Origin: Corallococcus coralloides DSM 2259
GTDB lineage: Bacteria > Myxococcota > Myxococcia > Myxococcales > Myxococcaceae
DNA: 64,000 bases
NCBI RefSeq assembly: GCF_000255295.1
Contig: NC_017030.1
Coordinates: forward strand, 5,974,328-6,038,327
Direction of reading: 5' to 3'
Part shown: in pieces, positions 5,192-26,800 of the stretch
How the letters are laid out: the number at the start of each line of letters is the position of its first letter
Numbering within the stretch: position 1 is the first letter of the stretch
Position numbers and translations under genes: made by a program
Notes under the pieces: generated by a model
Told to the model about the DNA's origin: nothing
Databases searched by the model: none
What the model saw: the letters and a program-made list of their open reading frames with translations, nothing else

Positions 5192-5290
5192 GGGGAACGC
5201 TTCTCCGGATGAACGGGGACGGCACACGGCGCTCCGTCTGCTCCACGGGAGGGAGTGGACGGAGCGCCGGCGTTGGGACGGGTGAGGCGG

Positions 5291-6421: not shown

Positions 6422-6436
6422 GGCGGATTGCTTCCC

Positions 6437-10733: not shown

Positions 10734-13184
10734 ATGGACGGACTTCGAGGAACAGCAGCGGTCTTGCTCGCGTGCGCGGGCCTGTGGGCCCCGGGCACCA
10801 CGTGGGCACAGGCACCGGACGAGGACGACTCCGGCGACGTGATGTCGGAGGAGAAGCTGGAGGCCCTGCTCGACACGCCCACGGCACAGCCCTCCCAGGA
10901 CGAGGTGACGGCGGAGGCCTTCGGGCCGGAGCGGCTGTCGTCCTACTTCGCGGAAGGCCTGCTGGCGAAGGCGAAGGCGGAGTTCGACCGCGGCCGGTAC
11001 AAGTCCGCGCGGGCGCTGCTCGCGACGGAGTCTCCCCCTTCCCTCCCCGGCCGCTTCCTCCAGGCGCAGAGCGCGTTCCTCGCGCGCGACTTCGCCACCG
11101 CCGCCGCGGAGTTCACCGCGCTGGCGGAGGACTACGTCCCTTTGCGCGACCACTGCCTGATGAAGGCCGCGCAGTCGCATGAACGGCTGCGCAAGCCGCT
11201 GCGCGCGGCGGAGCAGTATGGTCAGGTGAGCTCCAGCTCCCCGCTCTATCCGGAGGCCCGCTTCACCATGGCGCGCGTGCTCAAGCGCCAGCTGAAGATC
11301 CCCGAGGCGCTGGCCGCGCTCCAGGAGTTCATCGACAACCGGCAGGCCCGCGGGCCGGACGCGCTGCGCATGAAGGCGCTGCTCGCGTACTGCGACCTGG
11401 CGCGCGCGCAGGGCATGTACAACGCCGAGCACCGCGCGCTGCTGGAGGTCTGGGCCACCGCGCCCCTGTCGCCGGAGGCGGACCGTGCGAAGGCCCTGCT
11501 GCGCGACCTGCCCCTGCCCATGAAGTGGCGCGTGCGCCGCGCGGAGGCGCTGGTGGAGCTGCACCAGAACGTCGCCGCCATGAACATGCTGGCCCGCTCA
11601 GGACCCCGCACGGAGCTCCCGGACGAGCTGGCCTGCCGCGCCCAGCTCACCCTGGGCCGCGCCCTGCGCAAGGAGCGCCAGCACCGCCGCGCCATCCAGG
11701 TGCTGGAGCCGGTGGCGCGCGAGTGCCTGTCGCCCGAGCAGCGGCCGCAGGCGCTGTACCTGCTCGCCTATTCGCAGTCCGTGGTGCAGCCGGAAGCGGC
11801 GGTGGAGACGTACGCCGCGCTGGCGAAGGACTACCCGGAGCACGGCTACGCGGACGACGCGCTGTTCTTCGAGGCCTGGACGCAGCAGCGCCTGGGCCGC
11901 GCGGACGAAGCGCTGGAGAACTACGAGGCGCTGGCGAAGCGCTACCCGGCCGGCAACTTCGCCGCCGAGGCCCTCTTCCGCGCCTTCTGGCTGCACCTGC
12001 GCAAGGGTGAGACGCAGCCGGGCCTGGCGTCGCTCATGTCGGTGGAGCAGCTGCCGGAGTCCGCGCGCACCGACGACGCCCTCTGGCGCGCGCGCTACTG
12101 GCAGGCGCGGACCCAGGAGAACGCCGGCGCGCTGGAGCCGGCGCTCGCGCGCTATGAGCTCATCGCCACCGAGCGCCCCACGGCCTGGTACGGGCTCTTG
12201 TCCCGGACGCGGCTGGCGCAGCACGCGCCGGAGCGGCTGGCGCGGCTGACGGAGACCGCCGCGCAGCCGGCCGTGGCGAAGACCGTGAACACCGCCGCGC
12301 CGGCCAACGACGAGGTCTGGCCCCTGCCCCCGGGCCCGCTCCAGAAGGATGCGCGCTTCGCGGCGGGCGTGGAGCTCTTGCGCCTGGGACAGCCGGGCGT
12401 GGTGGAGGAGCTGCTCGCGGTGGACACGCGCGGCCTGGCGGAAGCGCCCGCGCGGCTGCTCTACCAGACCATGCGCCGCACCGGCCGGGGCCGGGCCACG
12501 CGGCAGGTGGCTCGCGTGACGCTGCGCCAGGAGGCCGCCGGCCCGCTCAGCGCCGCGTCCCGTCCGGTGTGGGAGGCGACGTGGCCGCTCGCGTTCCGGC
12601 CGCTCATCCAGAGCTATTCGAAGGCCGCGCGCGTGGACCCCGACCTCCTGCAGGGCCTCATCCGCGAGGAGAGCCGGTTCAACCCGCGCGCGCGTTCGTC
12701 CACCGGCGCGCTGGGGCTCGCGCAGCTGATGCCCACGACGGCGCAGGCGGTGGCGGACTCGCTCAAGCTGGCGTCGTTCGAGATGTCGTCGCTGCTCCAG
12801 CCCGCGCCCAACATCCGGCTGGGGGCGGCGTACCTGGGCTCGCTGCTCAAGCACTTCGACGGCAACCCCGCCTACGCGGTGGCCGCCTACAACGCGGGCC
12901 CCGCGGCGGTGGAGCGCTGGCGCAAGGCCCTGCCCCAGGCGGAGCTGGACGAGTGGGTGGAGCACATCGCCTTCGATGAGACCCGCGACTACGTGAAGCG
13001 CGTGCTCAGCAGCTACAGCGCCTACAAGCTGCTCTACGCCAACGAGGTCCCCGCCTCCTTCGCGCCCGCCCGCAAGGCCCCGCTGGAGGCCGTGCGCACG
13101 CCCACGATGAACCCCGCCACGGGCGTGGGCGGCAGCGGCCGGAACGTGGCGACGCCCACGTCCTCCGTCTCCGGGAGACGCTAG
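10734..13184 (+). CDS. Soluble lytic murein transglycosylase (Slt70-like: superhelical TPR-like N-domain plus a C-terminal SLT domain)
   Basis: It starts at the ATG at 10734 (MDGLRGTAAVLLACAGLWAPGTTWAQA, a signal peptide). The SLT catalytic region reads GLIREESRFNPRARSSTGALGLAQLMP ... AYNAGP. Confidence 0.85.
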   Translation: MDGLRGTAAVLLACAGLWAPGTTWAQAPDEDDSGDVMSEEKLEALLDTPTAQPSQDEVTAEAFGPERLSSYFAEGLLAKAKAEFDRGRYKSARALLATESPPSLPGRFLQAQSAFLARDFATAAAEFTALAEDYVPLRDHCLMKAAQSHERLRKPLRAAEQYGQVSSSSPLYPEARFTMARVLKRQLKIPEALAALQEFIDNRQARGPDALRMKALLAYCDLARAQGMYNAEHRALLEVWATAPLSPEADRAKALLRDLPLPMKWRVRRAEALVELHQNVAAMNMLARSGPRTELPDELACRAQLTLGRALRKERQHRRAIQVLEPVARECLSPEQRPQALYLLAYSQSVVQPEAAVETYAALAKDYPEHGYADDALFFEAWTQQRLGRADEALENYEALAKRYPAGNFAAEALFRAFWLHLRKGETQPGLASLMSVEQLPESARTDDALWRARYWQARTQENAGALEPALARYELIATERPTAWYGLLSRTRLAQHAPERLARLTETAAQPAVAKTVNTAAPANDEVWPLPPGPLQKDARFAAGVELLRLGQPGVVEELLAVDTRGLAEAPARLLYQTMRRTGRGRATRQVARVTLRQEAAGPLSAASRPVWEATWPLAFRPLIQSYSKAARVDPDLLQGLIREESRFNPRARSSTGALGLAQLMPTTAQAVADSLKLASFEMSSLLQPAPNIRLGAAYLGSLLKHFDGNPAYAVAAYNAGPAAVERWRKALPQAELDEWVEHIAFDETRDYVKRVLSSYSAYKLLYANEVPASFAPARKAPLEAVRTPTMNPATGVGGSGRNVATPTSSVSGRR

Positions 13185-13231
13185 CGGCTCACGCCGGACG
13201 GGAAGCGCATCCCCGTCCGGCGCGGTCGTGA

Positions 13232-14047
13232 CTACTTCGCGCCCGTGGGCTGGGTGATGGACTCGGAGCGGATGGTGTACTCGCCGGCGATGGCGTTCGT
13301 GTCGATGCCCGTGAAGTGACGGTACGGGTACGCGCCATCCGCGACGGTCTCGATGAACTCCACCGAGTCACCGGTGACGGACTTGCCGTCGATGTTCACG
13401 GTGAAGGTGGTCTTCTCCGAGTCCACGCGCCACACGCACGCGCCCACGTTCGTCTCCGCGGAGCCGGTGGACAGCCCGTCGATGTCGAAGTCGTTCAGGA
13501 AGTGGTGGTGCATCTCCGCCCAGCGGAGGAAGTCCCGCCAGTTGGTGAAGGTGATCATCAGCCCGGCCGGCTGGTGGCTGGAGCCCTGGAGCACGCCGCC
13601 CCGGTAGATGTTCATCCGGTACGCGGAGCCGCCCGGCGAGCCCGTGAACGTGGGCAGCATGTTGACCGTGTTCGCCTCGCGGCCCGGCATCACCTTCAGC
13701 GTGCTGACGACCTGGTCGCCATCACGCGCGGCCAGCTGGTAGCCGCCCTGCGCCCCCAGGCTCGCCGCCACGCGCTGCTCCCACTTCACGGCCTTCGTGA
13801 AGCTGCTGGAGATGCCGTCCTTCTGGGTCGTGAGGTTGGACACCGCCAGCCCGTCCGCGACGGAATCCAGCCTCGCGCGGCCCAGCGCGCAGCTGGTGAT
13901 GCCCTCGAACTTCTTCACGCACTGGGTCGCCGCGGCTTCCTGCGCGTTCAGGGAACCGGAGGCCTGGCCGTCGTCGGCACCGCCCGCGCAACCCGTGATG
14001 CTCAGCAGCATGGAAGCCAGCAGGGAACCCGTGATCTTCAGATGCAT
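13232..14047 (-). CDS. Lipoprotein of unknown function (271 aa)
   Basis: It has a signal peptide and a lipobox (LLSITGC). I recognised no catalytic motif. Confidence 0.6.
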   Translation of the reverse strand: MHLKITGSLLASMLLSITGCAGGADDGQASGSLNAQEAAATQCVKKFEGITSCALGRARLDSVADGLAVSNLTTQKDGISSSFTKAVKWEQRVAASLGAQGGYQLAARDGDQVVSTLKVMPGREANTVNMLPTFTGSPGGSAYRMNIYRGGVLQGSSHQPAGLMITFTNWRDFLRWAEMHHHFLNDFDIDGLSTGSAETNVGACVWRVDSEKTTFTVNIDGKSVTGDSVEFIETVADGAYPYRHFTGIDTNAIAGEYTIRSESITQPTGAK

Positions 14048-14365
14048 CCGCTACCTCATCGTGTGGGGTGGACTGCACGCGGCCCCACTGCACCCCTCGC
14101 GCCAACACGCCAAGTCCGTCTGTTTCACTCGTGCCATTCAATGATTGAGAAAACGGAGTAGCGCTGGGAGTCACATGAAACATGCGATTTGTAGCAAGCC
14201 CGGTCTCACACGGAGCGTCAGGACGTCGCACCCGCGGGCGCGGTCTTGAAACGGGGATTCAAGGGATGAACCGGACGCGGGCGGAACTTTGCCGTGACGC
14301 ACAACTCCGCGGGGGGTTCGACGGATAATCTGGGGAGCGCGGTTCCTCCCCCCGGACACCCCACC

Positions 14366-15805
14366 ATGGCATCGAAGATCAACGACAGCTCGCGTCCCCT
14401 CACCTCCGTCTCGCGGCTGTCCTCGCAGGACGCCCGGACGACGGAGGCGAAGGCCCGGAACCGCCCCCTCGCGTTCAAGGACGGCTTCGAGTCCTCCAGC
14501 AGCACGCGCCCCGCGCCCGGCCAGCTGCCGCGCCTGCCCGCGCCGCCGCCGATTCTGGGGCTGCCCGCGCCCACCACCCCGACTCCGGCGCCGACGACGC
14601 CCGTGCCTCCGGAGGCGCCCACCGAGCCGCCCGTCTCGGCCGACTCGGATCCGATGACGCACCTCGAGTACCTGGCCTCGGACGCGCTGCAGGGCCGTGA
14701 CAGCCCCTCCGCGGGCCTGGATGCGGCTTCCGTCTACGTGCAGGCCCACGCGGAGAAGTACGGGCTCGTGGGGCCCAACAGCAACAACCCGGAGAACCCC
14801 TTCCAGCAGCGGTTCAACGTCTACTCGTGGCTGGGCGCGGACAAGGCGGGCGAGACGGCCGGCGCGGCCCATGCCGGGCATGGGCATGCCGAGCACAAGC
14901 AGTTCGGCCACACGATGTTCCAGGAGGGCTTCTACCTGGACGAGAAGATGCCCAAGGACACGCTGAAGAAGCTCAACCAGCAGTACGAGCAGACGATGAA
15001 GGCGGCGGGCCAGTCCATTGTGCCGGCGCGCGCGGGCAAGCAGCGCAGCGTGGAGGAGCTCAAGCAGGTGGCCACGGCCACGGGCCAGGCGGTGAACACC
15101 ATGGCCCTGCTGCCCGGCACCGGCCCTCACAAGGACGAGGTCATCGTGGTGATGGCCCACCTGGACCACGTGGGCGTGGACCGCAAGGGCAACGCGTACA
15201 ACGGCGCGGACGACAACGCGTCCGGCAGCGCGGTGCTGATGGCGGCGGTGCCGGAGCTGGCGGAGGCCGCGAAGAACGGCAAGCTGGACCGCTCCGTGCT
15301 CTTCATCTGGACGGGCGCGGAGGAGAAGGGCCTGGTGGGCTCGCAGTACTTCGTGGACCACCCCATCCCCGGCCTGGAGCTGAAGAACATCGCCGGCGTC
15401 ATCAACACGGACATGGTGGGCCGCTGGGATGATCAGCGCCTGTCCGTGGTGGACACCAACACCAAGGGCCAGCCCAACTACTTCCGCGACGTGGTGGATC
15501 AGGCGAACCAGCAGCTGGCGGATCCGTTCGACCGCATCAACCGCGACATCAACGTCTACCGCGACCGGCAGGACGGCGCGTCCTTCGGACGCAAGGGCGA
15601 GGACGTGCTCTTCCTCTTCGAGGGCCTGTCCAACCCCGAGGGCGGCGGCGACCTCATCCCCGAGTACCACCGGCAGGATGACGACATCGACAAGATCATC
15701 AAGGACAACGGCGGCAACAAGCCCCGCCGCGTGAAGGACCTGCTCCTCAACGTCATCAACCTGGCGGCGAACCGCACCACGGAGCCGCAGCAGCCGCAGA
15801 AGTAG
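14366..15805 (+). CDS. M28-family zinc aminopeptidase with a disordered Pro/Thr-rich N-terminal extension
   Basis: It is in frame with ORF 14294. M28 motifs are present: HLDHVG, ADDNASGSAVL, GAEEKGLVGS and NTDMVG. No classical signal peptide follows the ATG at 14366. Confidence 0.85.
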   Translation: MASKINDSSRPLTSVSRLSSQDARTTEAKARNRPLAFKDGFESSSSTRPAPGQLPRLPAPPPILGLPAPTTPTPAPTTPVPPEAPTEPPVSADSDPMTHLEYLASDALQGRDSPSAGLDAASVYVQAHAEKYGLVGPNSNNPENPFQQRFNVYSWLGADKAGETAGAAHAGHGHAEHKQFGHTMFQEGFYLDEKMPKDTLKKLNQQYEQTMKAAGQSIVPARAGKQRSVEELKQVATATGQAVNTMALLPGTGPHKDEVIVVMAHLDHVGVDRKGNAYNGADDNASGSAVLMAAVPELAEAAKNGKLDRSVLFIWTGAEEKGLVGSQYFVDHPIPGLELKNIAGVINTDMVGRWDDQRLSVVDTNTKGQPNYFRDVVDQANQQLADPFDRINRDINVYRDRQDGASFGRKGEDVLFLFEGLSNPEGGGDLIPEYHRQDDDIDKIIKDNGGNKPRRVKDLLLNVINLAANRTTEPQQPQK

Positions 15806-15822
15806 CTGTGCGCGGCCCCCTT

Positions 15823-15848
15823 CCGCCGGAAAGGAGCCCTTCCGGCGG
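15823..15848. terminator. GC-rich hairpin (9-bp perfect stem ccgccggaa/ttccggcgg, 8-nt loop) between the convergent M28 and desaturase genes. It is a putative bidirectional terminator.
   Basis: The inverted repeat was read directly from the sequence. Neither side has a strong U-tract. Confidence 0.4.
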
Positions 15849-15875
15849 GAGCTTCCAGCGGGGACAGCGGGACCG

Positions 15876-16775
15876 CTAGGCGGCCAGCTTCTCCCCGCTG
15901 CCTTCCACGGTCCTGCCGGAGAGCGCGGCGACCTCGTGCTCGCTCAGCACGAGCTTCTCCTCGGAGCCGCGCCACACGAACGGGATGCCCGGCTGGCGGT
16001 ACAGGTTCGAGGGGATCTCCTGCGCCAGCTGCGCGTGCAGCTCCGGCAGCTTGGACCAGTGCAGCCCGTGCCGCGTGTGATGCGCGGTGTGGTAGCCCAG
16101 GTTGCCCGTCATCAGGTTGTAGCCCTTGTGGAGGATGTTGTACGAGGCCTCCGAGTGGTTGGCCGTCTCCAGGCCCACGTGGTGGAAGTACGTGGCCCAG
16201 GTCGTCACGTAGAGCGACGCCATCATGGGCAGGAGGAACACGAAGAGCGCGTTGTAGGGGTTCACCCAGAACAGGCCCGCCAGCAGCACCACCTGGAGCA
16301 CGGCCATCCAGACGAACGTGCGCAGCGCCTTGGGGTGATGCTTCCTGCCCACCTGGAACGCGCGCGGGTACGCGGTCAGCGCCGTGCCCAGCGAGTACTC
16401 CACCTCGCCCATCGTCGAGCCGTCATCCCGCTTCCAGCGCGACTCGTCCTGCGTCTGGTCCAGGTAGTTCTTGTGGTGGCCCAGCACGTGGTGGAGGAAC
16501 CACGCCTGCGACGTCACGCCCGTCTGGAAGCCGAAGACGATCTCCAACAGCCGGTTGGGCAGCGCGTGCTTGAAGAAGGACAGGTGCTGGTGGTGGTGGT
16601 TCCACGAGCAGATCCACCCCTTGGGGATGATGCCCAGCCCGAACCACAGCACCGGCACCCACCAGCTGCGCGCCGTGAGGAACACCGTCATGTCGAGCGC
16701 GAAGACGCCAAGGAACATCAGGACCGGGATGCGATCTTCAGGGTGCCGGAACAGGGTCATGCGCCTTCCGTACAA
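15876..16775 (-). CDS. Membrane fatty-acid desaturase / hydroxylase-family protein (299 aa)
   Basis: It has three His boxes (HHHQH, HHVLGHH, HTAHHTRH) and hydrophobic transmembrane segments. The start is at 16775 or 16760. Confidence 0.8.
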   Translation of the reverse strand: MYGRRMTLFRHPEDRIPVLMFLGVFALDMTVFLTARSWWVPVLWFGLGIIPKGWICSWNHHHQHLSFFKHALPNRLLEIVFGFQTGVTSQAWFLHHVLGHHKNYLDQTQDESRWKRDDGSTMGEVEYSLGTALTAYPRAFQVGRKHHPKALRTFVWMAVLQVVLLAGLFWVNPYNALFVFLLPMMASLYVTTWATYFHHVGLETANHSEASYNILHKGYNLMTGNLGYHTAHHTRHGLHWSKLPELHAQLAQEIPSNLYRQPGIPFVWRGSEEKLVLSEHEVAALSGRTVEGSGEKLAA

Positions 16776-16916
16776 GGGGGCCAGGGGAAAAATGCCGATT
16801 TTCCAACTGTAGGCTGTCAGCCCCTATGCCGAACAGCCCACCCTTGCCTGCCTGCACGTTCCACACTGGCGGTAAACCACGTAGTCGCGTTGAACTTGTC
16901 TTTCCACATTTCCAAG

Positions 16917-16937
16917 AATCACAGACCTGCTTTGTGA
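16917..16937. promoter_or_regulatory. Imperfect palindrome ATCACAGA-cctgc-TTTGTGAT in an AT-richer patch, 45 bp upstream of the HO-like gene and within the divergent promoter region
   Basis: The arms were read from the sequence and match 7 of 8. The TCACA/TGTGA half-sites are in everted order relative to a CRP-type site. Confidence 0.3.
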
Positions 16938-16979
16938 TAAACGCCGACCCAGCCCTTTTGGACCAACCTGGAGGCGGCA

Positions 16980-17642
16980 ATGCGGAACCAGACCATCGAG
17001 GCGGCACTGGCGAAGAATTCCCACCGTGAGCAGCTGATCAAGCACCGGTTCTTCGAGGTGGTGGACGAGAAGGCCTTCAGCCGCGACCAGGCGGAGCTGG
17101 TCCTGGGTCAGTGGTGGCACCCCCTGCACTACTTCCCCACCTTCCTGGGCAAGCTCATCGCCGTCTGCCCGCAGATGGAGATGAAGACGGCGGTGACGCA
17201 CATCCTCAACCAGGAGGTGGGCGAGGGAGACCCGGCGAGAGCGCACGAGCGCTTCTTCATCCAGACGATGACGGACGCGGGCTTCACCAAGGCGGGCGTG
17301 TCCGAGGCGGACATGACGCCCGCGACGCGCCGGCTCATCGACGGGTACCAGCGCTCCACGGACAGCCACCTCACGGGCCTGGGCTTCCTCTACGGCACGG
17401 AGGTGGCGGACCTCACCATGGTGGCCAAGCTGGGCAAGCTGGTGCGCCGCACCACGGGCCTCAAGGCGCTGCCCTGGGTGGACATCCACGTGAAGCAGGA
17501 GCCGGACCACGTGGAGACGGCCGGCCACACCATGGGCCTCGCGTACACGGACGAGGAGCTGGCCACCATCACCCGCGGTGCGGAAGAGATGTGGCAGCTG
17601 TGGGTGGGATTCTTCGAGGAGCTGCGCAACCGCGTCGTCTGA
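16980..17642 (+). CDS. Heme-oxygenase-like fold protein (TenA/PqqC/CADD/HDO family iron-containing redox enzyme), 220 aa
   Basis: It is an all-helical protein with conserved Glu/His spacing (HILNQEVGE, AHERFF, LYGTEVADL, HVKQEPDHVE), consistent with a di-iron HO-like oxidase. Confidence 0.65.
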   Translation: MRNQTIEAALAKNSHREQLIKHRFFEVVDEKAFSRDQAELVLGQWWHPLHYFPTFLGKLIAVCPQMEMKTAVTHILNQEVGEGDPARAHERFFIQTMTDAGFTKAGVSEADMTPATRRLIDGYQRSTDSHLTGLGFLYGTEVADLTMVAKLGKLVRRTTGLKALPWVDIHVKQEPDHVETAGHTMGLAYTDEELATITRGAEEMWQLWVGFFEELRNRVV

Positions 17643-17818
17643 GCGGCTCCTCGCGTCAAGCGCAACCCCCCGGAATCCGTACGTTTTCGTACGGAACACT
17701 GGCGAATCTCTCCAGGTAGGGTAGTCACTCCCGCGTCACGGGAGTGTCACCCCCCAGAGGCGCCACCCCCTCCCGCGGCGGATAGCTCCTGTCCCTCCAG
17801 GCGCCGAGGGAGATCCCC

Positions 17819-18445
17819 ATGCTCGAAAAGCTGATGCCGAAGTCGGACGAGTTCTTCGACGACTTCGACGCGCAATGCGCCAGAACTGTCGAGGGAGCAA
17901 AGCTCCTACACGAGCTCCTGAGCGACTTCCGGGACGTGCCCACACGCGTCCAGGCCCTCAAGGACGTGGAGCACAAGGGTGACGAGGTCACCCATACGGC
18001 CTTCAACCGGCTGCACCAGCAGTTCATCACCCCGTTCGACCGGGGGCAGATCCACACGCTGCTGTCGCGCATCGACGACGTGCTGGACCTGACCAACGCG
18101 GCGGCGGCCCGGCTGCTCTACTACGAGATTGAATCCACCCGGGCGGACGCCACGGAGCTGGCGCGGCTCCTGGTGCTCTCCACGCAGAAGGTGCAGGAGG
18201 TCGTCGCGGCGCTGCGGCTCATCAAGAAGCCGGAGCAGATCCTCGCGGGCTGCATGGAGATCAAGCGCCTGGAGACCCAGGCGGATGAAGTCCTGCGCGC
18301 GGGCATGGGGCGGCTGTTCAAGAGCGGCGTGGATACCCTGACCATCATCAAGTGGAAGGAGATCTACGACCTCATCGAGACGGCCACCGACAAGTGCCAG
18401 GGCGTGGCCAACGTCATCGAAGGCGTCGTGCTGGAGCACTCCTGA
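17819..18445 (+). CDS. DUF47-family protein, a PhoU-like regulator paired with a PiT transporter
   Basis: The product contains MLEKLMPKSDEFFDDFDAQCARTVEGAKLL... The gene sits immediately upstream of the PiT gene. Confidence 0.8.
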   Translation: MLEKLMPKSDEFFDDFDAQCARTVEGAKLLHELLSDFRDVPTRVQALKDVEHKGDEVTHTAFNRLHQQFITPFDRGQIHTLLSRIDDVLDLTNAAAARLLYYEIESTRADATELARLLVLSTQKVQEVVAALRLIKKPEQILAGCMEIKRLETQADEVLRAGMGRLFKSGVDTLTIIKWKEIYDLIETATDKCQGVANVIEGVVLEHS

Positions 18446-18446
18446 G

Positions 18447-19472
18447 ATGCTGCTCGCAGCGGTCGTCACCATCGTCGCCGTCGCGCTCATCTTCGATTTC
18501 ATCAATGGATTCCACGACGCGGCGAACTCCATCGCCACCGTGGTGTCCACGCGCGTGCTGTCGCCGAACCTGGCCGTGGCCTGGGCGGCGTTCTTCAACT
18601 TCATCGCGGCCTTCGCGGGCGGCGTGCACGTGGCCAACACCATGGGCAAGGGCATCATCAACTTCGAGATGCTCCGGGCCGCCGGCCCCACCGCGGTGCT
18701 GATGGTCATCTTCGCGTCGCTGATGGGCGCCATCGTCTGGAACCTGCTCACCTGGTGGTGGGGGCTGCCCTCGTCGTCGTCGCACGCGCTGGCGGGCGGG
18801 ATGATTGGCGCCACCCTGCCCGTCCTGGGCTTCGAGGGCCTGGTGGGCAGCGGCATCGCGCGCATCGCGGCCTTCATCGTGCTGTCGCCGCTCATCGGCA
18901 TGACGCTGGGCATCGGGATGATGCTGGCCAGCACCTGGGCGGTGCACCGTCAGACGCCGCTGCGCGTGGACACCTGGTTCCGCAGGCTGCAGCTGGTGTC
19001 GTCCGCCATCTTCTCCTTCAGCCACGGCACCAACGACGCGCAGAAGGTCATGGGCATCATCGCGGTGGTGCTCTTCGGCACCATCTGGCGCGACCGCCCG
19101 TTCCACATCGACTGGTGGATGATCATCTCCTGCCACGCCGCCATCGCGCTGGGCACCTTCTTCGGCGGCTGGCGCATCATCCGCACCATGGGCCACAGCC
19201 TCACGAAGCTGGCGCCCATTGGCGGCTTCAGCGCGGAGACGGGCGGCGGCGTCACCATCATCGCGCTGGCGGAGCTGGGCATCCCCGTCTCCACCACGCA
19301 CACCATCACCGGCGCCATCGTCGGCGTGGGGTCCACGCGCGGCTGGCGTGCCGTGAAGTGGGGCACCGCCGGCCGCATCATCTGGGCGTGGGTGTTCACC
19401 ATCCCCGCCGCCGCGCTGGTGTCCGTGCTCGTCTACGGAATCACGCTGGCCGTCGTTCGGCTGGTGGGCTGA
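18447..19472 (+). CDS. Inorganic phosphate transporter, PiT (PHO4) family
   Basis: It has the GFHDAANSIAT and GTNDAQKVMGII signature repeats and about 10 transmembrane segments. Confidence 0.9.
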   Translation: MLLAAVVTIVAVALIFDFINGFHDAANSIATVVSTRVLSPNLAVAWAAFFNFIAAFAGGVHVANTMGKGIINFEMLRAAGPTAVLMVIFASLMGAIVWNLLTWWWGLPSSSSHALAGGMIGATLPVLGFEGLVGSGIARIAAFIVLSPLIGMTLGIGMMLASTWAVHRQTPLRVDTWFRRLQLVSSAIFSFSHGTNDAQKVMGIIAVVLFGTIWRDRPFHIDWWMIISCHAAIALGTFFGGWRIIRTMGHSLTKLAPIGGFSAETGGGVTIIALAELGIPVSTTHTITGAIVGVGSTRGWRAVKWGTAGRIIWAWVFTIPAAALVSVLVYGITLAVVRLVG

Positions 19473-19483
19473 AGAAAGCCCCG

Positions 19484-19510
19484 GGCGCGGGGGAGAGAGT
19501 CCCCCGCGCC
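19484..19510. terminator. GC hairpin (11-bp perfect stem ggcgcggggga/tcccccgcgcc, 5-nt loop) between the convergent PiT and membrane-protein genes
   Basis: The inverted repeat was read directly. The minus-strand transcript has a ctttctt tract after it. Confidence 0.45.
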
Positions 19511-19523
19511 ACCCGCGGCTGCC

Positions 19524-21311
19524 CTACTGGACGACGCGGACGTTGAGGGCCGACGACGGTCCGCCCACGGCCGGCGGCACCCAGGGCACCACCTTCTTGT
19601 TCTGCCACTGGACCAGCTTCAGCGACGGGTCCTCCAGCGGCACGTCGAAGGTGTAGGAGATGCGCGTGGGGCCCTGCGCGTCCGCCTCTTCAATCTTCAC
19701 CTTCATGCCCTTCATGTCGAACTCGTCGCCCTGGCGCACCGGGTGGCGCGCGGCGCGGTGGATGCGCTCCTCCACGGAGTCCAGGAAGTGGCCGCCATGG
19801 GTGAGCGACAGCTCCAGCGAGTTGGGGCCGGTGCGCGTCACCTTCTGCTCGTAGAGCGAATAGGACAGCACCCACCAGGCCTTCGGCAGCGGCTGGCCCG
19901 AGGACCACCAGCGCACAGAGCCGTAGATGCCGACGATGCCGTTGGGGGCGTTGAGCACCACCACGCGCTGGTTGGGGAGCTTCTCCTCCTCGAACGCCTC
20001 CTCGTAGCGCGCCTGCACGCGCCCCATGAGCGCGTCCGCCTGGGAGTACTGGTCCATGGTCTGCCACCAGATGTACGGCGCGCCCACGACGTGGATGATG
20101 GCCATCACCGCCGCGCCGGCCAGCACCGCGCCCGCGCGGAACGCCTTCGCCCGCCCCTTCCACGCGTGGCGCAGCACCACGGCCAGGCCCACCGCCGTGC
20201 CCAGGCTGGGCACGATGAGCGTGCGCGAGCCGGCGAAGGCGGAGTTGGACAGCCACGTGGACACGAACGCGCCCGTCAGCATCCAGCCCACCGTGCGCCG
20301 CTCCGCGGCCTCCAGCCGGGGCCACACGCCCCACACGAGCAGCGCGAACAGCGTCAGGCCCACCGCGCCCAGAATCGTGAAGAGGGGCACCAGGGACTGG
20401 TCGAAGATGAAGTCCGGGGGCGCGTTCAGCGTCAGGCCCGCGATGGCGGCCGGGACGCGCCCGAGCATCGCCTGGAACCACGCCACGGGCGTCCCCAGCG
20501 CGTCCAGGTACATGTCCGAGCCACCCGCGCCGTAGCCCATGGCCCGGTACGCCGCGAAGTAGATGGCCATCAGCACGCCGAAGGGGATGAGCCCCTTGAG
20601 CTTGTCCTTCGCCTGCCCCGGGCCGGAGAAGGCCTCGTAGGCCAGCACGTACGGGCTGAGGATGACCATCGTCTCGCCGCACAGGAGCGCGAGCGTGAAG
20701 GACACCAGCGCGCCCACCAGCGCGTTCTTGCGCCCCTGCTCCCGCCACTGGATGTGGAAGTAGAGACCGAGGACGCCGAACATCAGGGACATCACCACGC
20801 TGCGGTAGGACAGCCAGCCCAGCACCGCCGCGTGCGAGCCCCAGATGGCGAAGAGGACCATCGCCACGCCCGCCACCGCCGTGGGCAGCACGCGCTTGAA
20901 CAGCACGCCCGCCAGCGCCACCAGGCCCACGTACCAGAGCAACGAGTGGAGCTGGTAGGCCTCCGAGACGCGGTTGTAGAGCAGGTGATCCAGTCCGTAG
21001 AGCAGGCTGCCCAGGGGCCGGAAGAACGAGACGCGCACGGTGGGCTCCACCCACCACGGGAAGACGCCCACCTCCGCCAGCCGCAGCGTGTGCTCCGGGA
21101 TGCCCGTGGCCGTGCGGTACACGTCCAGGTGCGTGTTGCCCAGCGGCGCGGGCGGCGGAATGTTGTCCCAGACGCCCAGCCAGATGAAGTCATCCGGCAT
21201 GAACCCCGAGCGCAACGCCGTCGCGCCCAGCGCCAGCGCGAAGACGATGGAAATCCAGAAGTAGCGCTTAAACGGCCAACCCGGGGCGGTTGGCGAAGGT
21301 GAAGTATCCAT
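19524..21311 (-). CDS. Polytopic integral membrane protein with a C-terminal periplasmic domain (595 aa). It may be a GT-C/ArnT-like glycosyltransferase or a YfhO-like protein.
   Basis: It has about 11 predicted transmembrane helices, followed by a soluble region of about 180 aa. No definitive motif was found. Confidence 0.55.
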   Translation of the reverse strand: MDTSPSPTAPGWPFKRYFWISIVFALALGATALRSGFMPDDFIWLGVWDNIPPPAPLGNTHLDVYRTATGIPEHTLRLAEVGVFPWWVEPTVRVSFFRPLGSLLYGLDHLLYNRVSEAYQLHSLLWYVGLVALAGVLFKRVLPTAVAGVAMVLFAIWGSHAAVLGWLSYRSVVMSLMFGVLGLYFHIQWREQGRKNALVGALVSFTLALLCGETMVILSPYVLAYEAFSGPGQAKDKLKGLIPFGVLMAIYFAAYRAMGYGAGGSDMYLDALGTPVAWFQAMLGRVPAAIAGLTLNAPPDFIFDQSLVPLFTILGAVGLTLFALLVWGVWPRLEAAERRTVGWMLTGAFVSTWLSNSAFAGSRTLIVPSLGTAVGLAVVLRHAWKGRAKAFRAGAVLAGAAVMAIIHVVGAPYIWWQTMDQYSQADALMGRVQARYEEAFEEEKLPNQRVVVLNAPNGIVGIYGSVRWWSSGQPLPKAWWVLSYSLYEQKVTRTGPNSLELSLTHGGHFLDSVEERIHRAARHPVRQGDEFDMKGMKVKIEEADAQGPTRISYTFDVPLEDPSLKLVQWQNKKVVPWVPPAVGGPSSALNVRVVQ

Positions 21312-21531
21312 GTTTCAAAGATCTATCAGCCCGCCCCCCACACGAGATAGGTCCTCCTGGGTCGTCCGCTGCCACCGGAAACGCGCGGAGAGTGCGGCGC
21401 GCGCGACGGAGATCCTTTGCCACCGCCCGGACTCCGGGTGATCCTCCACCGACGAAGGGGGACGCGGTCCGGCAGGTGAAAACACGAACGCGAGCGCCCG
21501 TTGCAGCCGCGCCGCCGCCGGGCCCGCTCGC

Positions 21532-22947
21532 ATGCGCATCGCCATCATCGCCACGTACACCCATCCGACCCGGCTGCGAATCAAGGAACCCTCCATCATG
21601 CAGTCCTCCGTGCCGGAGCTCATCGCGGGCCTGTGCCCGGAGCACGCGCAGGTGGAGATCTTCAACGAGAAGGAGGCGGACCTGCCGTTGGACCGGCACT
21701 GGGACCTCGTCTTCTTCTCGTACCTGCACTCGTATTACGAGCACACCAAGGTCCTCTCCACCCTCTTCCGTCAGCGCGGCATGACGACGGTGGCGGGAGG
21801 CCGGCACGCGAGCCACTTCCCCGACGACGCGGCGAAGTACTTCGACGCGGTCATCACCGGGGAGCCGGAGTCCAACGTGCCCGCGCTCATCGCGGACTTC
21901 GAGAAGGGCGAACTCAAGCCCCGCTACAGCCTGCCGTCGCAGGGGGCCGCGGCCATCCGGCCATACCGCTACGAGCTCATCGACTTCACGCACAACAAGG
22001 TGCGCCTGCCGGGCATCGAGGCGTCGCGCGGCTGCCCCTTCACGTGCAACTTCTGCGTGCTCACCGGCCACGAGCGCTACCGCTTCCGGCCCATCCCGGA
22101 GGTCATCGACGAAATCCAGACGCGCATGCGCTGGAACCCGAACTTCCTGGGGCTGATGGGGGACGCGTTCGTCTTCCTGGACAACAACCTGGGCGGCTCG
22201 CCCAAGTACCTGCGCGCGCTGTGCGAAGCGCTCATCCCCTTGAAGAAGACCTGGGGCTGCGCGCTCACCTTCAACGTGCTCAAGGACGAGTCGCTGGTGA
22301 AGCTGATGGCGAAGGCGGGCTGCCGCTACGTCTACACCGGCCTGGAGTCGCTCAACCCGGACTCGCTCAAGGCGATGAACAAGGGCCAGAACAAGCTGTC
22401 GGAGGTGGACGCCGTCATCCGCCGCGTCTTCTCCGCCGGCATCCTGCTGTCGTTCGGACTCATCGTCGGCTCGGACGGCGACACCAACGAGTACCTGCAC
22501 CGGCTGCCGGACTACCTGGCGGACCTGAAGTACTTCTCCGTCACGTTCCTGGGCATCGTGTGCCCGTATCCGGAGACGCCCTTCTTCCGAGAGCTCAAGG
22601 CCGAGGACCGGCTTCTGCCCGGCACCACCAGCCGCGACTACGACGGCTACACGCTGTGCCACCGGCCCAAGCAGATGCACGCGTCGGAGGTGGTGGAGCA
22701 CTTCCAGCGGCTGTGCCGCACGTTGGGGAGCCTGCCCAACATCGCGCGGCACTACGCGTCCAAGCTGATGATGAGCGACCTGCCCCGCTACAAGCAGACC
22801 ATCCTCTTCTCCGGGCCCGAAATCGTCAGCATCCGCAACCCGGTGAAGAACCCGGAGCGCCGCTACATCGCGGGGCTGGATGCCATCGAGGCGTGGGACG
22901 CGGAGCGGATGCCCGCGCTGGGCCTCACGCCGCAGGTCCTGACCTGA
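21532..22947 (+). CDS. B12-binding-domain radical SAM protein (class B)
   Basis: The N-terminus has a cobalamin-binding-like Rossmann region. The radical SAM cluster motif is CPFTCNFC (CxxxCxxC). Confidence 0.85.
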   Translation: MRIAIIATYTHPTRLRIKEPSIMQSSVPELIAGLCPEHAQVEIFNEKEADLPLDRHWDLVFFSYLHSYYEHTKVLSTLFRQRGMTTVAGGRHASHFPDDAAKYFDAVITGEPESNVPALIADFEKGELKPRYSLPSQGAAAIRPYRYELIDFTHNKVRLPGIEASRGCPFTCNFCVLTGHERYRFRPIPEVIDEIQTRMRWNPNFLGLMGDAFVFLDNNLGGSPKYLRALCEALIPLKKTWGCALTFNVLKDESLVKLMAKAGCRYVYTGLESLNPDSLKAMNKGQNKLSEVDAVIRRVFSAGILLSFGLIVGSDGDTNEYLHRLPDYLADLKYFSVTFLGIVCPYPETPFFRELKAEDRLLPGTTSRDYDGYTLCHRPKQMHASEVVEHFQRLCRTLGSLPNIARHYASKLMMSDLPRYKQTILFSGPEIVSIRNPVKNPERRYIAGLDAIEAWDAERMPALGLTPQVLT

Positions 22948-23836
22948 GCCGGGACGGCAGGCGCACGTCCCACGCCAGCCCCAGGGCCTGGAGCGCCCGG
23001 ATGAAGAGCCAACCCGGGTCCCACTGCCACCACACCCAGCCGTGCCGAGCGGACGCGGGGAAGGCGTGGTGGTTGTTGTGCCAGCCCTCGCCCAGCGCGA
23101 GCACGCTCACCCACCACACGTTGCGGCTGAGGTCGCGCGTGTCGTGGACGCGGTGGCCGAACGCCGCGTGGCACACCGAGTTCACCGCATAGGTGCTCTG
23201 CATCCAGCACACCACGGGCAGGAAGAAGTACGCGGGCACCGTGCGCCAGCCGAAGGTCAGCCCCACGAAGAGCACCCCCAGCACCTGCGGCGCGATGCGG
23301 TAGCGCAAAAGCCAATGGTAGTAGCCGTCATCCGCCATGTCGCGGCACCAGGTGCGCCAGCCGTCCTCTTCGGTGGAGGCCTCGTTGAGGATCCACCCCA
23401 TGTGCGCGTACCAGAAGCCGCGCACCGGCGAGTGCACGTCCCCGTCCGCGTCCGCCTTCGCGTGGTGCAGCCGGTGGTTCGCGGCCCACAGGAGCGGGCT
23501 GCCCTGCGCCGTGAGCATGGCCACCGTCACCAGCGCGTACTCCACCCAGCGGGGGCACGCGAAGGCGCGGTGGCACAGGAGCCGGTGCAGCCCCACCGTC
23601 GTGCCCAGGCCAATGGACACGTACACGGCCAGCGCCACCGGCAGCGCGTACGGCGGCCAGGGCAGGAAGAACGCCAGCGCGGCCAGCCCGTGGACCACGA
23701 GCATGTAGCTGACGATGACGGGACTGAGCTGGAAGCGGAGCGGCGCGGTGATCATGGCCCGGTGCGGTGGTCGAGGAAGAAGCACGCAGTCTAGGGGCCC
23801 CGCCTGACGGGACAAGGAATGCGCCCGGCGCGTCAC
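22925..23836 (-). CDS. Acyl-CoA (stearoyl-CoA-type, delta-9) desaturase-family protein
   Basis: It has the His boxes HRLLCH, HRLHH and HNNHH and four transmembrane segments. The start is ambiguous between 23836 and 23755 (MITAPLRF). The gene overlaps or abuts the cyclase stop, and its 3' end overlaps the convergent radical SAM gene by 23 bp. Confidence 0.85.
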   Translation of the reverse strand: MTRRAHSLSRQAGPLDCVLLPRPPHRAMITAPLRFQLSPVIVSYMLVVHGLAALAFFLPWPPYALPVALAVYVSIGLGTTVGLHRLLCHRAFACPRWVEYALVTVAMLTAQGSPLLWAANHRLHHAKADADGDVHSPVRGFWYAHMGWILNEASTEEDGWRTWCRDMADDGYYHWLLRYRIAPQVLGVLFVGLTFGWRTVPAYFFLPVVCWMQSTYAVNSVCHAAFGHRVHDTRDLSRNVWWVSVLALGEGWHNNHHAFPASARHGWVWWQWDPGWLFIRALQALGLAWDVRLPSRLRSGPAA

Positions 23837-26800
23837 ATCACGCGGGCGTCACGGACCCGGGCGGCCTGGGCCGCCATGAGCGCCTCGGCCGGCGGGGCCT
23901 GGAGCGTGGCCTGGAAGCGGTCCACTCGGCGCAGCTCCGCGCGGGCCTCCACCTCCGTGAAGATGGCGCGCGCACGGGCGAGGAAGTCCTCGCGCCGGTG
24001 CGGCAGGGCCACCGCCGCGTCGAAGTAGGCCACGCCCGTCTCCCAGCGGTTGGGGCTCTTCTCCAGGACGGCGATGGCCTCCAGGAACACCGGCTCCGCG
24101 GCCTTCGGGCCCTTGCGCAGGGCCAGCGAGCGCGCCGTCACGCGCAGCGCCGGGCCCTTCAGGTACGGATAGAGCCGCGCGATGACGCGCGCCTTGATGC
24201 AGGACAGGCGGACGATCTTCAGCAGCTCCTTGCGCGGCACCACCGTGGCGCCCTCCTCCAGCGCGAAGAGGGCCGCCTCCGCCGCGTCCACCAGCCCCAC
24301 CTGGAGGAAGGGCACCAGCACCTGGTAGCTCCAGATGCTCTTGAAGCAGCGCACCGCGACGAGCGCCGCCTCCTCCACCTGGTGCTCGCGCACCGTGACG
24401 TTGGCCAGGTGGTTGAGGCTCGCGCACTGGTTGGCCAGGTCCGCCACCTCTTCGCTGATGCGCAGGCCCTGCTCCAGCTCCGCGCACAGTTCGCCCACGT
24501 CGCCTTCGCCCATGAGGTAGCGGCACATGGGCGCCCACGAGTGCGCCCAGCCCTGGTGCATCAGCGCGTTGAGCTCCACGCCAATGGTCCCCATCTGCTC
24601 GTAGAGCGCCACCGCCGTGCGGAAGCGCGAGTGGAGGAACTCGCCCGTGGCCTGCATCATCAGCGACGTCTGGCGCTCCCAGCGCTCGCCCACCTGGCGC
24701 AGCGTGGAGACGGCCTCCTCCTGGAAGGTGCGCGCGCGCTCCAGCTCGTTGGCGAAGAAGGCCTGGATGCCCAGGCGGCTGAGCGCGAGCCCCTCCGCCA
24801 CGGGGTCCTTGGAGCGGCGCGCGTACTCCAGCGCCTTCTCGCAGTGGTAGCGCGCGCGCTTGAGCAGTCCCGCGCCGAACAGGAGCGTGCCGTAGTAGCC
24901 GCGCGCCAGGCTGATGGCGTAGTCGCTGCGCGAGCGCTCCGCCATGTTGGTGGACACCAGCGTCGCCCAGGTGAGCTTGGTGATGTCCGCGAAGTAGTAG
25001 ATGCGGATGAGCGAGTTGAGCGTGGACAGCTGCTGCAGGTAGTTGCCCAGCCTCGCCGCCGGCAGCGGGCGCAGGATGAAGGGCAACAGCGACGCGAGCC
25101 CTCGCAGCAGGAGATTGGCCAGCGTGCGCAGGCCCAGCGCGGCCAGGCTCCCCGGGAGGCTGCGGCCCCTCAGCACCAGCGACTTCTCCAGGTGCTGCGT
25201 GGCGAGCGCGGACTCGCCCTTCTCCTGGTGCGCGCGGCCCAGGCCCAGGTGCAGCTCCGCCTGGCGGGGGATCTCCTCCTCGTCCACCAGGCACTGTTCG
25301 AACATCAGGATGGCGTTGGCGTAGTGGCCCGCCTGGAGGAGCGTCTCCGCCAGTTCCTGCATCACCCGGCGCGTCTGGAGCAGCGTCACCTCCGGGTCCA
25401 CCGGGACGACGGTGCCGAGCAGCTCCAGGCCCCGGTTGTAGTGGTAGAGCGCGTCGTCGTTCGCGTACTGCGCCCGCGCGCTGCGGGCCGCCATCAGCGT
25501 GTACTCCAGGCCCTTGTCCTCCACGTTGCCCGCAAGGAAGTGGAACGCGAGCAGACCCGCGGAGCCCGCGAGGTTGTCGTTGGCGCGGGCCTCCAGGTAG
25601 CGCGCGAGCCGGCGGTGCAGGTCCTCACGCGCCGACACCAGCAGCGTGTTGTAGGCCACGTCGCGGATGACGATGTGCTTGAAGAGGCAGGTGTACGGCT
25701 CCTCCGTCTCCAGCAGGATGAGGCCCAGGCGCTGCAGCGTGTCCATGGCCTCGCGCAGCACGCGGTGGCCCAGGGTGGGCACCAGCGCCGCAACGGCGTC
25801 CAGCGTGAAGATGCGCCCGATGACGGACGCCACCTTCACCACCAGCTTCTCCGTCTCGCTGAGCAGGTCGATGCGCGACAGCACCACGTCCTGGATGGAG
25901 TCCGGCAGCAGCAGGTCCTGCAGGCCGCGCTTCAGCTCCATCCGCTGCGAGCCGGGCTCCACCGGCCCCAGGTAGCCCTGCTCCGCCAGGCCCTCCACGA
26001 TGGATTCGATGAAGAACGGGTTGCCCTGCACCTTCGCGAGCAGCCGGTCCTCCAGCGCGACGTCCGGCGGCGTCAGTCGCAGGTGCACGCGCAGGAGCGC
26101 CCGCGTGTCCTCGTCGTCCAGGCTCGACAGGTCCACCGGGACGAACTCCGGCAGGTCGCGCAGCCCGCGGAGCTGGTCGCCCGGGCGCATCGTCGCCAGC
26201 ACCATGATGCGGTGCGAGCCCACGCGCAGCGCCAGGTACTGGAGCAGGTCCAGCGAGATGTAGTCCGCCCAGTGCAGGTCCTCGAAGTAGAGCAGCAGCG
26301 GCTGCGCGCGGCTGAGCTTCTCCAGGAGCTGGAAGACGATTTGAAACACCTTCTGTTGCTTGCGACGCGCGTCGATGCCCGCGGTGGCGGACGTCTCCTC
26401 CAGCGCGATGCCGAGGATGCCCGCGACCACGGGGATCCACTCCGGCCCCACGTCCTCCAGGCCTTCCAGCCCCTGCCGCAGGCGCGCGAGCTGCGCGTCG
26501 GTGTCGTCCGAGTCGTGCAGTCCGAACGCCTGGAGCAGCACCTCCTTCCAGGGGAAGAAGGGGGTGAAGGCCTCGTAGGAATAGCAGACGCCGTACAGCG
26601 CCCGGGCGCCGCCCTCCTCCGCGTCCTCCAGCACGCGCGCGCCCAGCCGCGACTTGCCGATGCCCGCCTCGCCGGACACCACGCTCACGCGGCCCTGGCC
26701 CGCGAAGGCCGCGGTGAGCGATTCGTGCAGCACGTTCAGCTCGCGGCTGCGGCCGATGATGTCGCCCCGGCCCTTGATGAAGAGGCCTCGGCGCGTCTCT

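Follow-up and report, generated by a model that had tools for sequence, protein, structure and literature searches.

Heme-oxygenase-like dimetal oxidases (HDOs) carry out unusual amino-acid chemistry, including C–C cleavage, N-oxygenation, and the formation of nitriles, azetidines, and alkynes. They have been described as specializing in amino-acid substrates (PMC13185094). The described systems that bear on the locus treated here are BesC, the 4-chloro-allylglycine synthase of Streptomyces cattleya (PDB 7TWA); HrmI and BelK, lysine N6-oxygenases of the hormaomycin and belactosin pathways (PDB 9N1A); the azetidine-forming PolF (PDB 9PRR/9J3V); UndA, a fatty-acid decarboxylase that forms 1-alkenes (PDB 4WWJ/6P5Q); and CADD (CT610), a para-aminobenzoic acid (pABA) synthase (PDB 1RCW, 8VA9), together with the CADD-like protein Npun_F6505. 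A gene for a 220-aa HDO is found in a 64,000-nucleotide stretch of the genome of the myxobacterium Corallococcus coralloides DSM 2259 (contig NC_017030.1, positions 5,974,328 to 6,038,327; hereafter the window), where it lies divergent from a gene for a membrane desaturase. The original prediction took the two as a co-regulated pair responsible for a new lipid-oxidation or olefin-forming step. Comparison across genomes favors a different reading, to which a probability of about 0.6 is given: the desaturase and the HDO are both real but would not form a functional unit, and the HDO would be an accessory O2-activating di-iron enzyme, with an amino-acid-type substrate, from a clade associated with nonribosomal peptide synthetases (NRPSs).

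The features of the locus are listed here in window coordinates.

15876..16760, minus strand: membrane fatty-acid desaturase or hydroxylase gene (PF00487), placed by Pfam, homologue starts, His boxes, and GC content at third codon positions (GC3)
16786..16804, no strand: desaturase-proximal inverted repeat GGAAAA-N7-TTTTCC, inside a block kept in Corallococcus sp. BB11-1, which lacks the HDO
16825..17659, plus strand: presence/absence segment of 835 bp, made up of the HDO upstream region, the HDO coding sequence, and 17 bp beyond it (blastn and tblastn against BB11-1, contig L096)
16890..16919, plus strand: conserved block TTGAACTTGTCTTTCCACATTTCCAAGAAT, seen upstream of the HDO in Corallococcus, Citreicoccus, and Pyxidicoccus
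16918..16938, no strand: palindrome ATCACAGACCTGCTTTGTGAT (ATCACA-N9-TGTGAT, 6-nt arms, 9-nt spacer), 42 bp ahead of the start codon of the HDO gene
16970..16974, plus strand: GGAGG ribosome-binding site, 5 nt before the HDO ATG, read from the sequence and kept in all aligned upstream regions
16980..17642, plus strand: HDO gene, 220 aa (PF14518)
17819..19472, plus strand: PhoU_div (DUF47) and PHO4 phosphate-transporter genes, placed by Pfam and synteny

Fold, metal site, and relatives of the HDO protein

The HDO protein is identical to the C. coralloides entry AFE05999.1 / WP_014397545.1 and matches the Pfam family PF14518 (Haem_oxygenas_2, "iron-containing redox enzyme") at E 1e-27, confirming the heme-oxygenase-like fold first proposed for this 220-aa frame. 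The conserved Glu and His positions that had suggested a di-iron oxidase comprise a set of six dimetal ligands, E79, H89, E141, H170, E174, and H177, which are invariant among 30 family sequences down to 48% identity. The same alignment gives four motifs that do not vary within the clade (GQWWHPLHYFP, NQExGEG..AHE, YGTEVADL, and DIHxxQEPxHV), and an AlphaFold2 model built from it is confident (pLDDT 92.8, pTM 0.90). Both defining features of the HDO superfamily are present: the all-helical heme-oxygenase-like fold and the six-residue ligand set (Glu, His, Glu, His, Asp/Glu, His).

The fold comes closest to those of HrmI, CADD, BesC, and PolF. In a Foldseek comparison of the model with the PDB, the top matches were CtCADD, BesC, PolF, HrmI, and UndA; TenA proteins are among the top 50, the first of them at rank 17, and the TenA and PqqC structures are placed below the dimetal HDOs. 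Compared as a single sequence with PDB sequences by phmmer, the HDO had no meaningful match, and only a profile of its family reached described members. BesC was the best of these (E 1.4e-9), with the E...H, E, and H-x3-E-x2-H motifs aligned, and CADD was also found. Judged by its sequence and its model, the protein is a dimetal heme-oxygenase-like oxidase from an uncharacterized clade of a known superfamily, with 14–20% identity to any characterized member.

The similarity to each described system has limits. BesC shares the aligned ligand motifs, but its identity to the HDO is only 16–20%, it does not have the GQWWHPLHYFP motif that is invariant in the clade, and no bes-type partner genes (halogenase etc.) are near the HDO locus. 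HrmI, with 14% identity, is a protein of ~340 aa with extra elements and gave no sequence-level match in the profile search. The match to PolF (16–17% identity) was weak and C-terminal only, at E 0.17. UndA has 11–13% identity in structural alignments and ranks below the HDOs that act on amino acids, and the profile search of PDB sequences did not find it at E<=10. An assignment as an UndA-type fatty-acid decarboxylase was rejected for the missing profile match and for a clade context of NRPSs rather than lipid genes.

The proposed mechanism follows the chemistry of the superfamily. The ligands E79, H89, E141, H170, E174, and H177 would bind two Fe(II), or Fe/Mn, in a carboxylate- and histidine-bridged site, and the reduced cluster would activate O2. 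The substrate then oxidized would be an amino acid, an intermediate derived from one, or a carrier-bound intermediate, and the product would be a nonproteinogenic building block for a nonribosomal peptide. An amino-acid-type substrate appears the most probable because the closest characterized relatives (HrmI, BesC, and PolF) oxidize amino acids for peptide natural products and because the clade is linked to NRPSs.

NRPS linkage across the HDO clade

More than 1000 sequences are related to the HDO at E<=0.001. The nearest are four myxobacterial clusters at 80–95% identity, and the next best fall to ~48–58% and come mostly from Acidobacteriota. Synteny was scanned at 80 HDO loci, with one genome per species, using tblastn with the window proteins and a Pyxidicoccus NRPS. 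Outside Corallococcus and Citreicoccus, an NRPS gene is found within 1.5 kb of the HDO at 47 of 70 loci and within 5 kb at 61 of 70. These loci belong to Acidobacteriota, Eisenbacteria, Dyella, Paraburkholderia, Kofleriaceae, Microcoleus, and Pyxidicoccus. The NRPS gene is downstream and co-directional at 29 loci and upstream and divergent at 28. Seven loci are without an NRPS match, five of which have an incomplete flank on at least one side. For each of three acidobacterial HDO proteins whose context was looked up, a giant NRPS gene is transcribed divergently from the HDO gene. The clade is of interest as a large, strongly conserved, and biochemically uncharacterized group that is almost always beside NRPS genes, with many loci in Acidobacteriota, whose natural products have barely been explored. 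A compact, well-folding 220-aa protein from a culturable myxobacterium would offer a convenient entry point to the reaction.

The desaturase has no comparable place in the clade. It adjoins the HDO only in Corallococcus, at 8 of the 8 species-representative loci where the left flank is present. The two genes are not adjacent in BB11-1, Citreicoccus, Pyxidicoccus, or the other 69 loci, and the window desaturase family was not found near the HDO in Pyxidicoccus or at 60 NRPS-linked loci of other phyla. A crude regular-expression scan for His boxes, which is supportive only as it missed the adjacent desaturase at two Corallococcus loci, detected no membrane desaturase up to 10 kb from the HDO at any locus outside Corallococcus and Pyxidicoccus. 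The interpretation as a pair fails because the adjacency is not syntenic in related genomes, either outside the genus or, given BB11-1, throughout it.

Two other myxobacteria show different settings. In Pyxidicoccus caerfyrddinensis, whose HDO is 81% identical, the gene order is HDO, MFS_3, NRPS, and NRPS-TE. In Citreicoccus inhibens (86% identity), a flavin monooxygenase gene and then purine-catabolism genes are upstream of the HDO, and PhoU_div-PHO4 follows downstream as in the window. The C. inhibens monooxygenase (481 aa; L009/L023, 8293..9735) is encoded divergently from the HDO, where the window has the desaturase. It matches Pyr_redox_3 / NAD_binding_9 and shows a faint signal for Lys/Orn N-oxygenases, and its gene may also be left over from a set of tailoring genes.

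A compact arrangement was seen in Dyella tabacisoli (L080, 4554..19603). This cluster encodes a DegT aminotransferase, a sulfotransferase, a short-chain dehydrogenase/reductase, a methyltransferase, the HDO, directly after it an NRPS with the domain order C-A-T-C-A-T-TE (condensation, adenylation, thiolation, thioesterase), and an adenylating enzyme that stands alone. For identifying the HDO reaction, this cluster would make a convenient minimal system. A Mu-like transposase and a phage capsid-like open reading frame (ORF) are found beside it.

Among the adenylation (A) domains near the HDO, the A4 motif FDVSFQE(L/M/I) occurs at 11 mostly proteobacterial or myxobacterial loci (L024, L042, L078-L082, L084, L086, L088, and L090). 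In most of these it belongs to the first domain downstream, with a specificity code that starts D-V-Q, which we take to be typical of Pro-type A domains. When the A-domain specificity residues were sought by motif anchoring, fixed offsets proved unreliable and the A4 motifs differed between clades, and no common HDO substrate could be called.

In the window itself, no NRPS gene lies within 25 kb of the HDO. Corallococcus sp. EGB does have a possible partner, at a distance of 1.33 Mb from its HDO: an MFS_3 gene, whose product is 69% identical to that of the MFS gene following the HDO in Pyxidicoccus, and then a gene for a 3431-aa NRPS. This NRPS is 59% identical to the HDO-linked NRPS of Pyxidicoccus and 53% identical to another Pyxidicoccus NRPS. 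Three A-domain motifs were recovered from it by scanning, and two of its domains carry FDVSFQE(L/M/I). The HDO and the 3431-aa NRPS are recorded under several of the same species names and on contigs of matching length (9,587,888 and 9,787,125 bp), and the two probably occur in the same genomes. The HDO may act in trans with this cluster, which makes it a reasonable lead, no more. The corallorazine (crz) NRPS was rejected as the distant partner, as it is bimodular (PMC11342130) and the 3431-aa NRPS has three A-domain motifs.

The HDO segment in Corallococcus and the competing explanations

C. coralloides KYC2213 and other Corallococcus genomes are collinear with the window here, and an exact-sequence cluster look-up shows that C. 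exiguus and C. macrosporus carry the HDO. Corallococcus sp. BB11-1 has the same block, with genes for an SLT-TPR protein, a 271-aa protein, an M28 peptidase, the desaturase, PhoU_div, PHO4, a radical S-adenosylmethionine (SAM) enzyme, a second desaturase, and a cyclase, with no HDO. When window positions 13001..24500 were compared with BB11-1 by blastn, 15917..16824 and 17660..19474 aligned at 88–90% identity and the 835 bp between them did not. In BB11-1, 71 unrelated bases stand in place of 16825..17659, and tblastn found no HDO remnant there. The HDO gene, ~155 bp of upstream sequence, and the palindrome make up a single presence/absence segment. Loss in BB11-1 seems somewhat more likely than gain in the others because Citreicoccus also has the order HDO-PhoU_div-PHO4. 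Whichever occurred, the desaturase does not depend on the HDO. BB11-1 differs from the otherwise collinear window at two further points, lacking the 595-aa membrane-protein gene at 19524..21311 and having a Macro-domain gene between the M28 peptidase and the desaturase; because of these two additional indels, the small region around the HDO appears to be an indel hotspot.

The spacer between the divergent genes is 204 bp when measured from the TTG at which the desaturase was first placed and 219 bp from the ATG, and it is AT-richer as described, with 56% GC vs 70% for the window. The palindrome in it also exists, one base from where it was first placed (16917..16937), but it lacks the marks of a shared operator. 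The exact pattern ATCACA-N9-TGTGAT is rare in the window, a judgment made post hoc. In dinucleotide shuffles of the 204-bp spacer, counting any inverted repeat with 6-nt arms and a loop of 0–15 nt, 51% had at least one such repeat, and the observed number of three was reached in 11%. Across 12 Corallococcus sequences, the right arm TGTGAT and the TAAAC that follows it are invariant; changes in the left arm are not compensated (ATCACA, ATCTCA, ATCGCA, ATAGCA, ATGCCA, and ATCGCT), its fourth position changing freely, and the palindrome is perfect in only 3 of the 12. It also falls inside the HDO-specific segment missing from BB11-1. A role as the shared operator of a divergent pair was rejected, as the repeat is not above chance and is not conserved as a palindrome.

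The conservation in the spacer appears to belong instead to the two genes separately. A conserved stretch, TTGAACTTGTCTTTCCAyATTTCCAAGAAT...TTGTGATAAAC, has parts that are recognizable upstream of the HDO in Citreicoccus and Pyxidicoccus despite their other neighbors, and this upstream block is probably the promoter or regulatory region of the HDO gene itself. The inverted repeat GGAAAA-N7-TTTTCC sits in a block, GCCGATTTTCCAACTGTAGG, that BB11-1 retains (L096), which by this alignment assigns it to the desaturase side of the spacer. No promoter-like site emerged when 15700..17900 was scanned for sigma-70 promoters and terminators, and no Rfam model came near its gathering score over 15500..18000. 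In this arrangement, the HDO would be an accessory segment of one gene that brings along its upstream region, its Corallococcus copy standing apart from any NRPS.

Several explanations compete with that of an NRPS-associated accessory oxidase. Database names for the protein ("TenA family transcriptional regulator," "PQQ biosynthesis protein C"), a weak match to the CADD model TIGR04305, and CtCADD among the top structural matches could indicate a fold member of known function, that is, a self-sacrificing pABA synthase, a TenA thiaminase II, or PqqC; this is extremely improbable. The TIGR04305 score is 43.4 bits vs an NCBIfam cutoff of 200. The sacrificial residues of CADD are Tyr27 and Lys152 (C. 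trachomatis numbering). The residue taken as Tyr27 (the Tyr of HTFYVKW) aligns with an invariant Phe25 of the HDO in the HMMER alignment, and for Lys152, placed by count from E142, the position 10 residues after the ligand Glu is not conserved in the family, which has no invariant Lys. The folate-gene context of CADD likewise differs from the NRPS context of the clade, and the CADD-type assignment was rejected on the score and the two residues. As for TenA, its catalytic Cys is missing: the window protein has a single Cys, C63, which its relatives do not conserve, and the family has no invariant Cys. PF03070 does not match the window HDO and is only weak in relatives, and the NCBIfam PqqC and TenA models do not match at E<=0.1. 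The PqqC and TenA families are not known to have the six-ligand dimetal set that is invariant here. TenA and PqqC were rejected for the lack of a conserved Cys and of a family-model match and for their lower structural rank, and the check that the original prediction had proposed on this point leaves the dimetal oxidase reading standing. It is also unlikely, though less strikingly so, that the desaturase and the HDO are a co-regulated divergent pair that performs an undescribed lipid-oxidation or olefin-forming step through the shared palindrome. The two genes do stand side by side within the genus, but the pair is absent outside it, BB11-1 keeps the desaturase block without the HDO, the clade is NRPS-linked at 61 of the 70 other loci, the palindrome is neither above chance nor conserved and lies within the HDO-only segment, and the profile search of PDB sequences yields BesC and CADD rather than UndA. 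The lipid or olefin reading of the pair fails the comparison with related genomes and is not worth following.

A functional tie of the HDO to PhoU_div-PHO4, for example as a phosphate- or metal-responsive unit, would account for the co-directional order HDO-PhoU_div-PHO4 in Corallococcus and Citreicoccus, with gaps of ~130–180 bp. It is very improbable, as PhoU_div-PHO4 stand alone in BB11-1 with the same upstream block, no such neighbors occur at the 70 loci of other taxa, and we know of no biochemical link between HDO enzymes and Pit-type transporters. The HDO could also be the remnant of a lost or split NRPS cluster, a passenger gene, nonfunctional or nearly neutral, that at present serves no purpose in Corallococcus. 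The NRPS clusters around its relatives, the lack of an NRPS gene near it in the window, and its presence/absence polymorphism in the genus all suit this idea, which nevertheless seems improbable. The 220-codon frame is intact and all ligands are kept in 12 of 12 Corallococcus, Citreicoccus, and Pyxidicoccus copies, and the upstream block and ribosome-binding site are conserved. The ratio of nonsynonymous to synonymous substitution rates (dN/dS) is 0.20 against Citreicoccus and 0.38 against Pyxidicoccus; because it is 0.09–0.20 within Corallococcus, the gene is, as far as codon comparison can tell, still under purifying selection in the genus.

Some observations weigh against the accessory-oxidase reading. 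The adjacency of desaturase and HDO is kept at all eight Corallococcus loci, and there may be local co-regulation of the two in the genus, although close kinship gives the adjacency little independent weight. The 59% identity of the distant NRPS is only moderately above the 48–54% of other myxobacterial NRPSs, which leaves the link circumstantial, and an Archangium violaceum NRPS that is 61% identical to the HDO-linked Pyxidicoccus NRPS has no HDO within 9 kb. The A4 motifs near the HDO also differ, being FDVSFQEL in Proteobacteria and Myxococcota vs FDxSVEQI, FDLSIWEI, and FDVSVFEI in most Acidobacteriota, and because of this the clade may be without a single common substrate.

An extension of the accessory-oxidase reading is put forward tentatively, with the odds somewhat against it. 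The clade would perform an oxidative transformation of an amino acid or peptide that is new to HDO enzymes, feeding widespread NRPS clusters in Acidobacteriota, Eisenbacteria, Xanthomonadales, and Myxococcota. The Corallococcus copy, having been uncoupled, would work in trans or have a new substrate, conceivably a lipid made by the neighboring desaturase.

The A. violaceum NRPS has 3449 aa and sits (L095, 1..28350) amid genes for LysW/LysX-like proteins, an amino-acid kinase, a semialdehyde dehydrogenase, a split transketolase, a sulfotransferase, 3'-phosphoadenosine 5'-phosphosulfate/adenosine 5'-phosphosulfate (PAPS/APS) functions, and a WelO5-like oxygenase. This gene set resembles the amino-group-carrier-protein pathways to aziridine or azabicyclo amino acids.

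The desaturase and other genes of the window

The three-His-box membrane desaturase or hydroxylase was correctly recognized. The ORF 15876..16775 on the minus strand matches PF00487 (FA_desaturase) at E 8e-30, with 104.8 bits vs a cutoff of 29.7. The mechanical ORF reaches a TTG at 16775; the true start is probably the ATG at 16760 because the homologues begin at MTLFR. The His boxes H55/H59, H90/H91/H95/H96, and H224/H227/H228 are unchanged across 23 aligned homologues down to 54% identity, and the HX3H, HX3HH (H91/H95/H96), and HX2HH types are all present. A crude Kyte-Doolittle scan gives ~3 strongly hydrophobic segments. GC3 is 0.97 for the desaturase and 0.95–0.97 over both genes, as in real genes of a 70% GC genome.

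Homologues are found at 92% identity in C. caeni, at 74–78% in Cystobacter and Archangium, and at 70–73% in Myxococcus and Pyxidicoccus, and the family reaches other phyla at 54–65%. Of the CarF-type and UndB-type options raised for this enzyme, CarF/TMEM189 was rejected, as the plasmanylethanolamine desaturase family PF10520 does not match; the assignment that stands is to the desaturase family PF00487 only, the sole Pfam family at E<=0.01. No NCBIfam equivalog matched, and phmmer with the single sequence brought up nothing meaningful among PDB sequences. By homology, the protein is most likely a membrane di-iron enzyme, widespread in myxobacteria, that desaturates or hydroxylates acyl chains.

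The HDO is absent from the desaturase contexts of Myxococcus sp. SDU36, Myxococcaceae bacterium GXIMD 01537, and Cystobacter fuscus, whose homologues are 70–77% identical. The C. fuscus gene is set among polysaccharide genes. In SDU36 (L012, 1247..7846) and GXIMD 01537 (L097, 1312..7867), a desaturase homologue of 70–73% identity ends a lipoxygenase-P450-desaturase string, with a second lipoxygenase gene divergent and upstream. An oxylipin-type pathway is suggested because the desaturase start overlaps the P450 stop codon in this string. Nothing specific came up in the literature for the Myxococcus desaturase, MXAN_1742, or lipoxygenase-P450-desaturase operons.

The lipid theme that had been seen within 24 kb is only partly present. 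There is one further desaturase, at 22925..23836, without significant BLASTP similarity to the first, and one radical-SAM gene (21532..22947, plus strand, 471 aa), in which Pfam finds no B12-binding domain. Neither the MaoC dehydratase nor a third desaturase was found among the window ORFs scanned with Pfam. The second FA_desaturase is on the minus strand and is ~276–303 aa long, with an HRLxxH / NNHH type motif. It overlaps the radical-SAM gene convergently (21532..23836), and the two are kept together in Corallococcus sp. EGB and BB11-1.

On the other side of the HDO, PhoU_div-PHO4 is the direct divergent neighbor of the desaturase in BB11-1. The region upstream of PhoU_div (17643..17818) has a block, CACGGAACACTGGCGAATCTC...GTAGGGTAGTCAC...CGCGTCACGGGAGTGTCAC, that is kept in the window, C. 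coralloides KYC2213, and BB11-1 and, in part, Citreicoccus; the PhoU_div-PHO4 operon likely has its promoter or regulatory region here. Farther away is a run of three co-directional genes (window positions 3938..8368). Their products are a 429-aa cytochrome c of the di-heme type, a 376-aa protein that matches no Pfam family, and a 643-aa protein that weakly matches MtrC/MtrF-like and cytochrome c3 families; together they may form an extracellular electron-transfer module.

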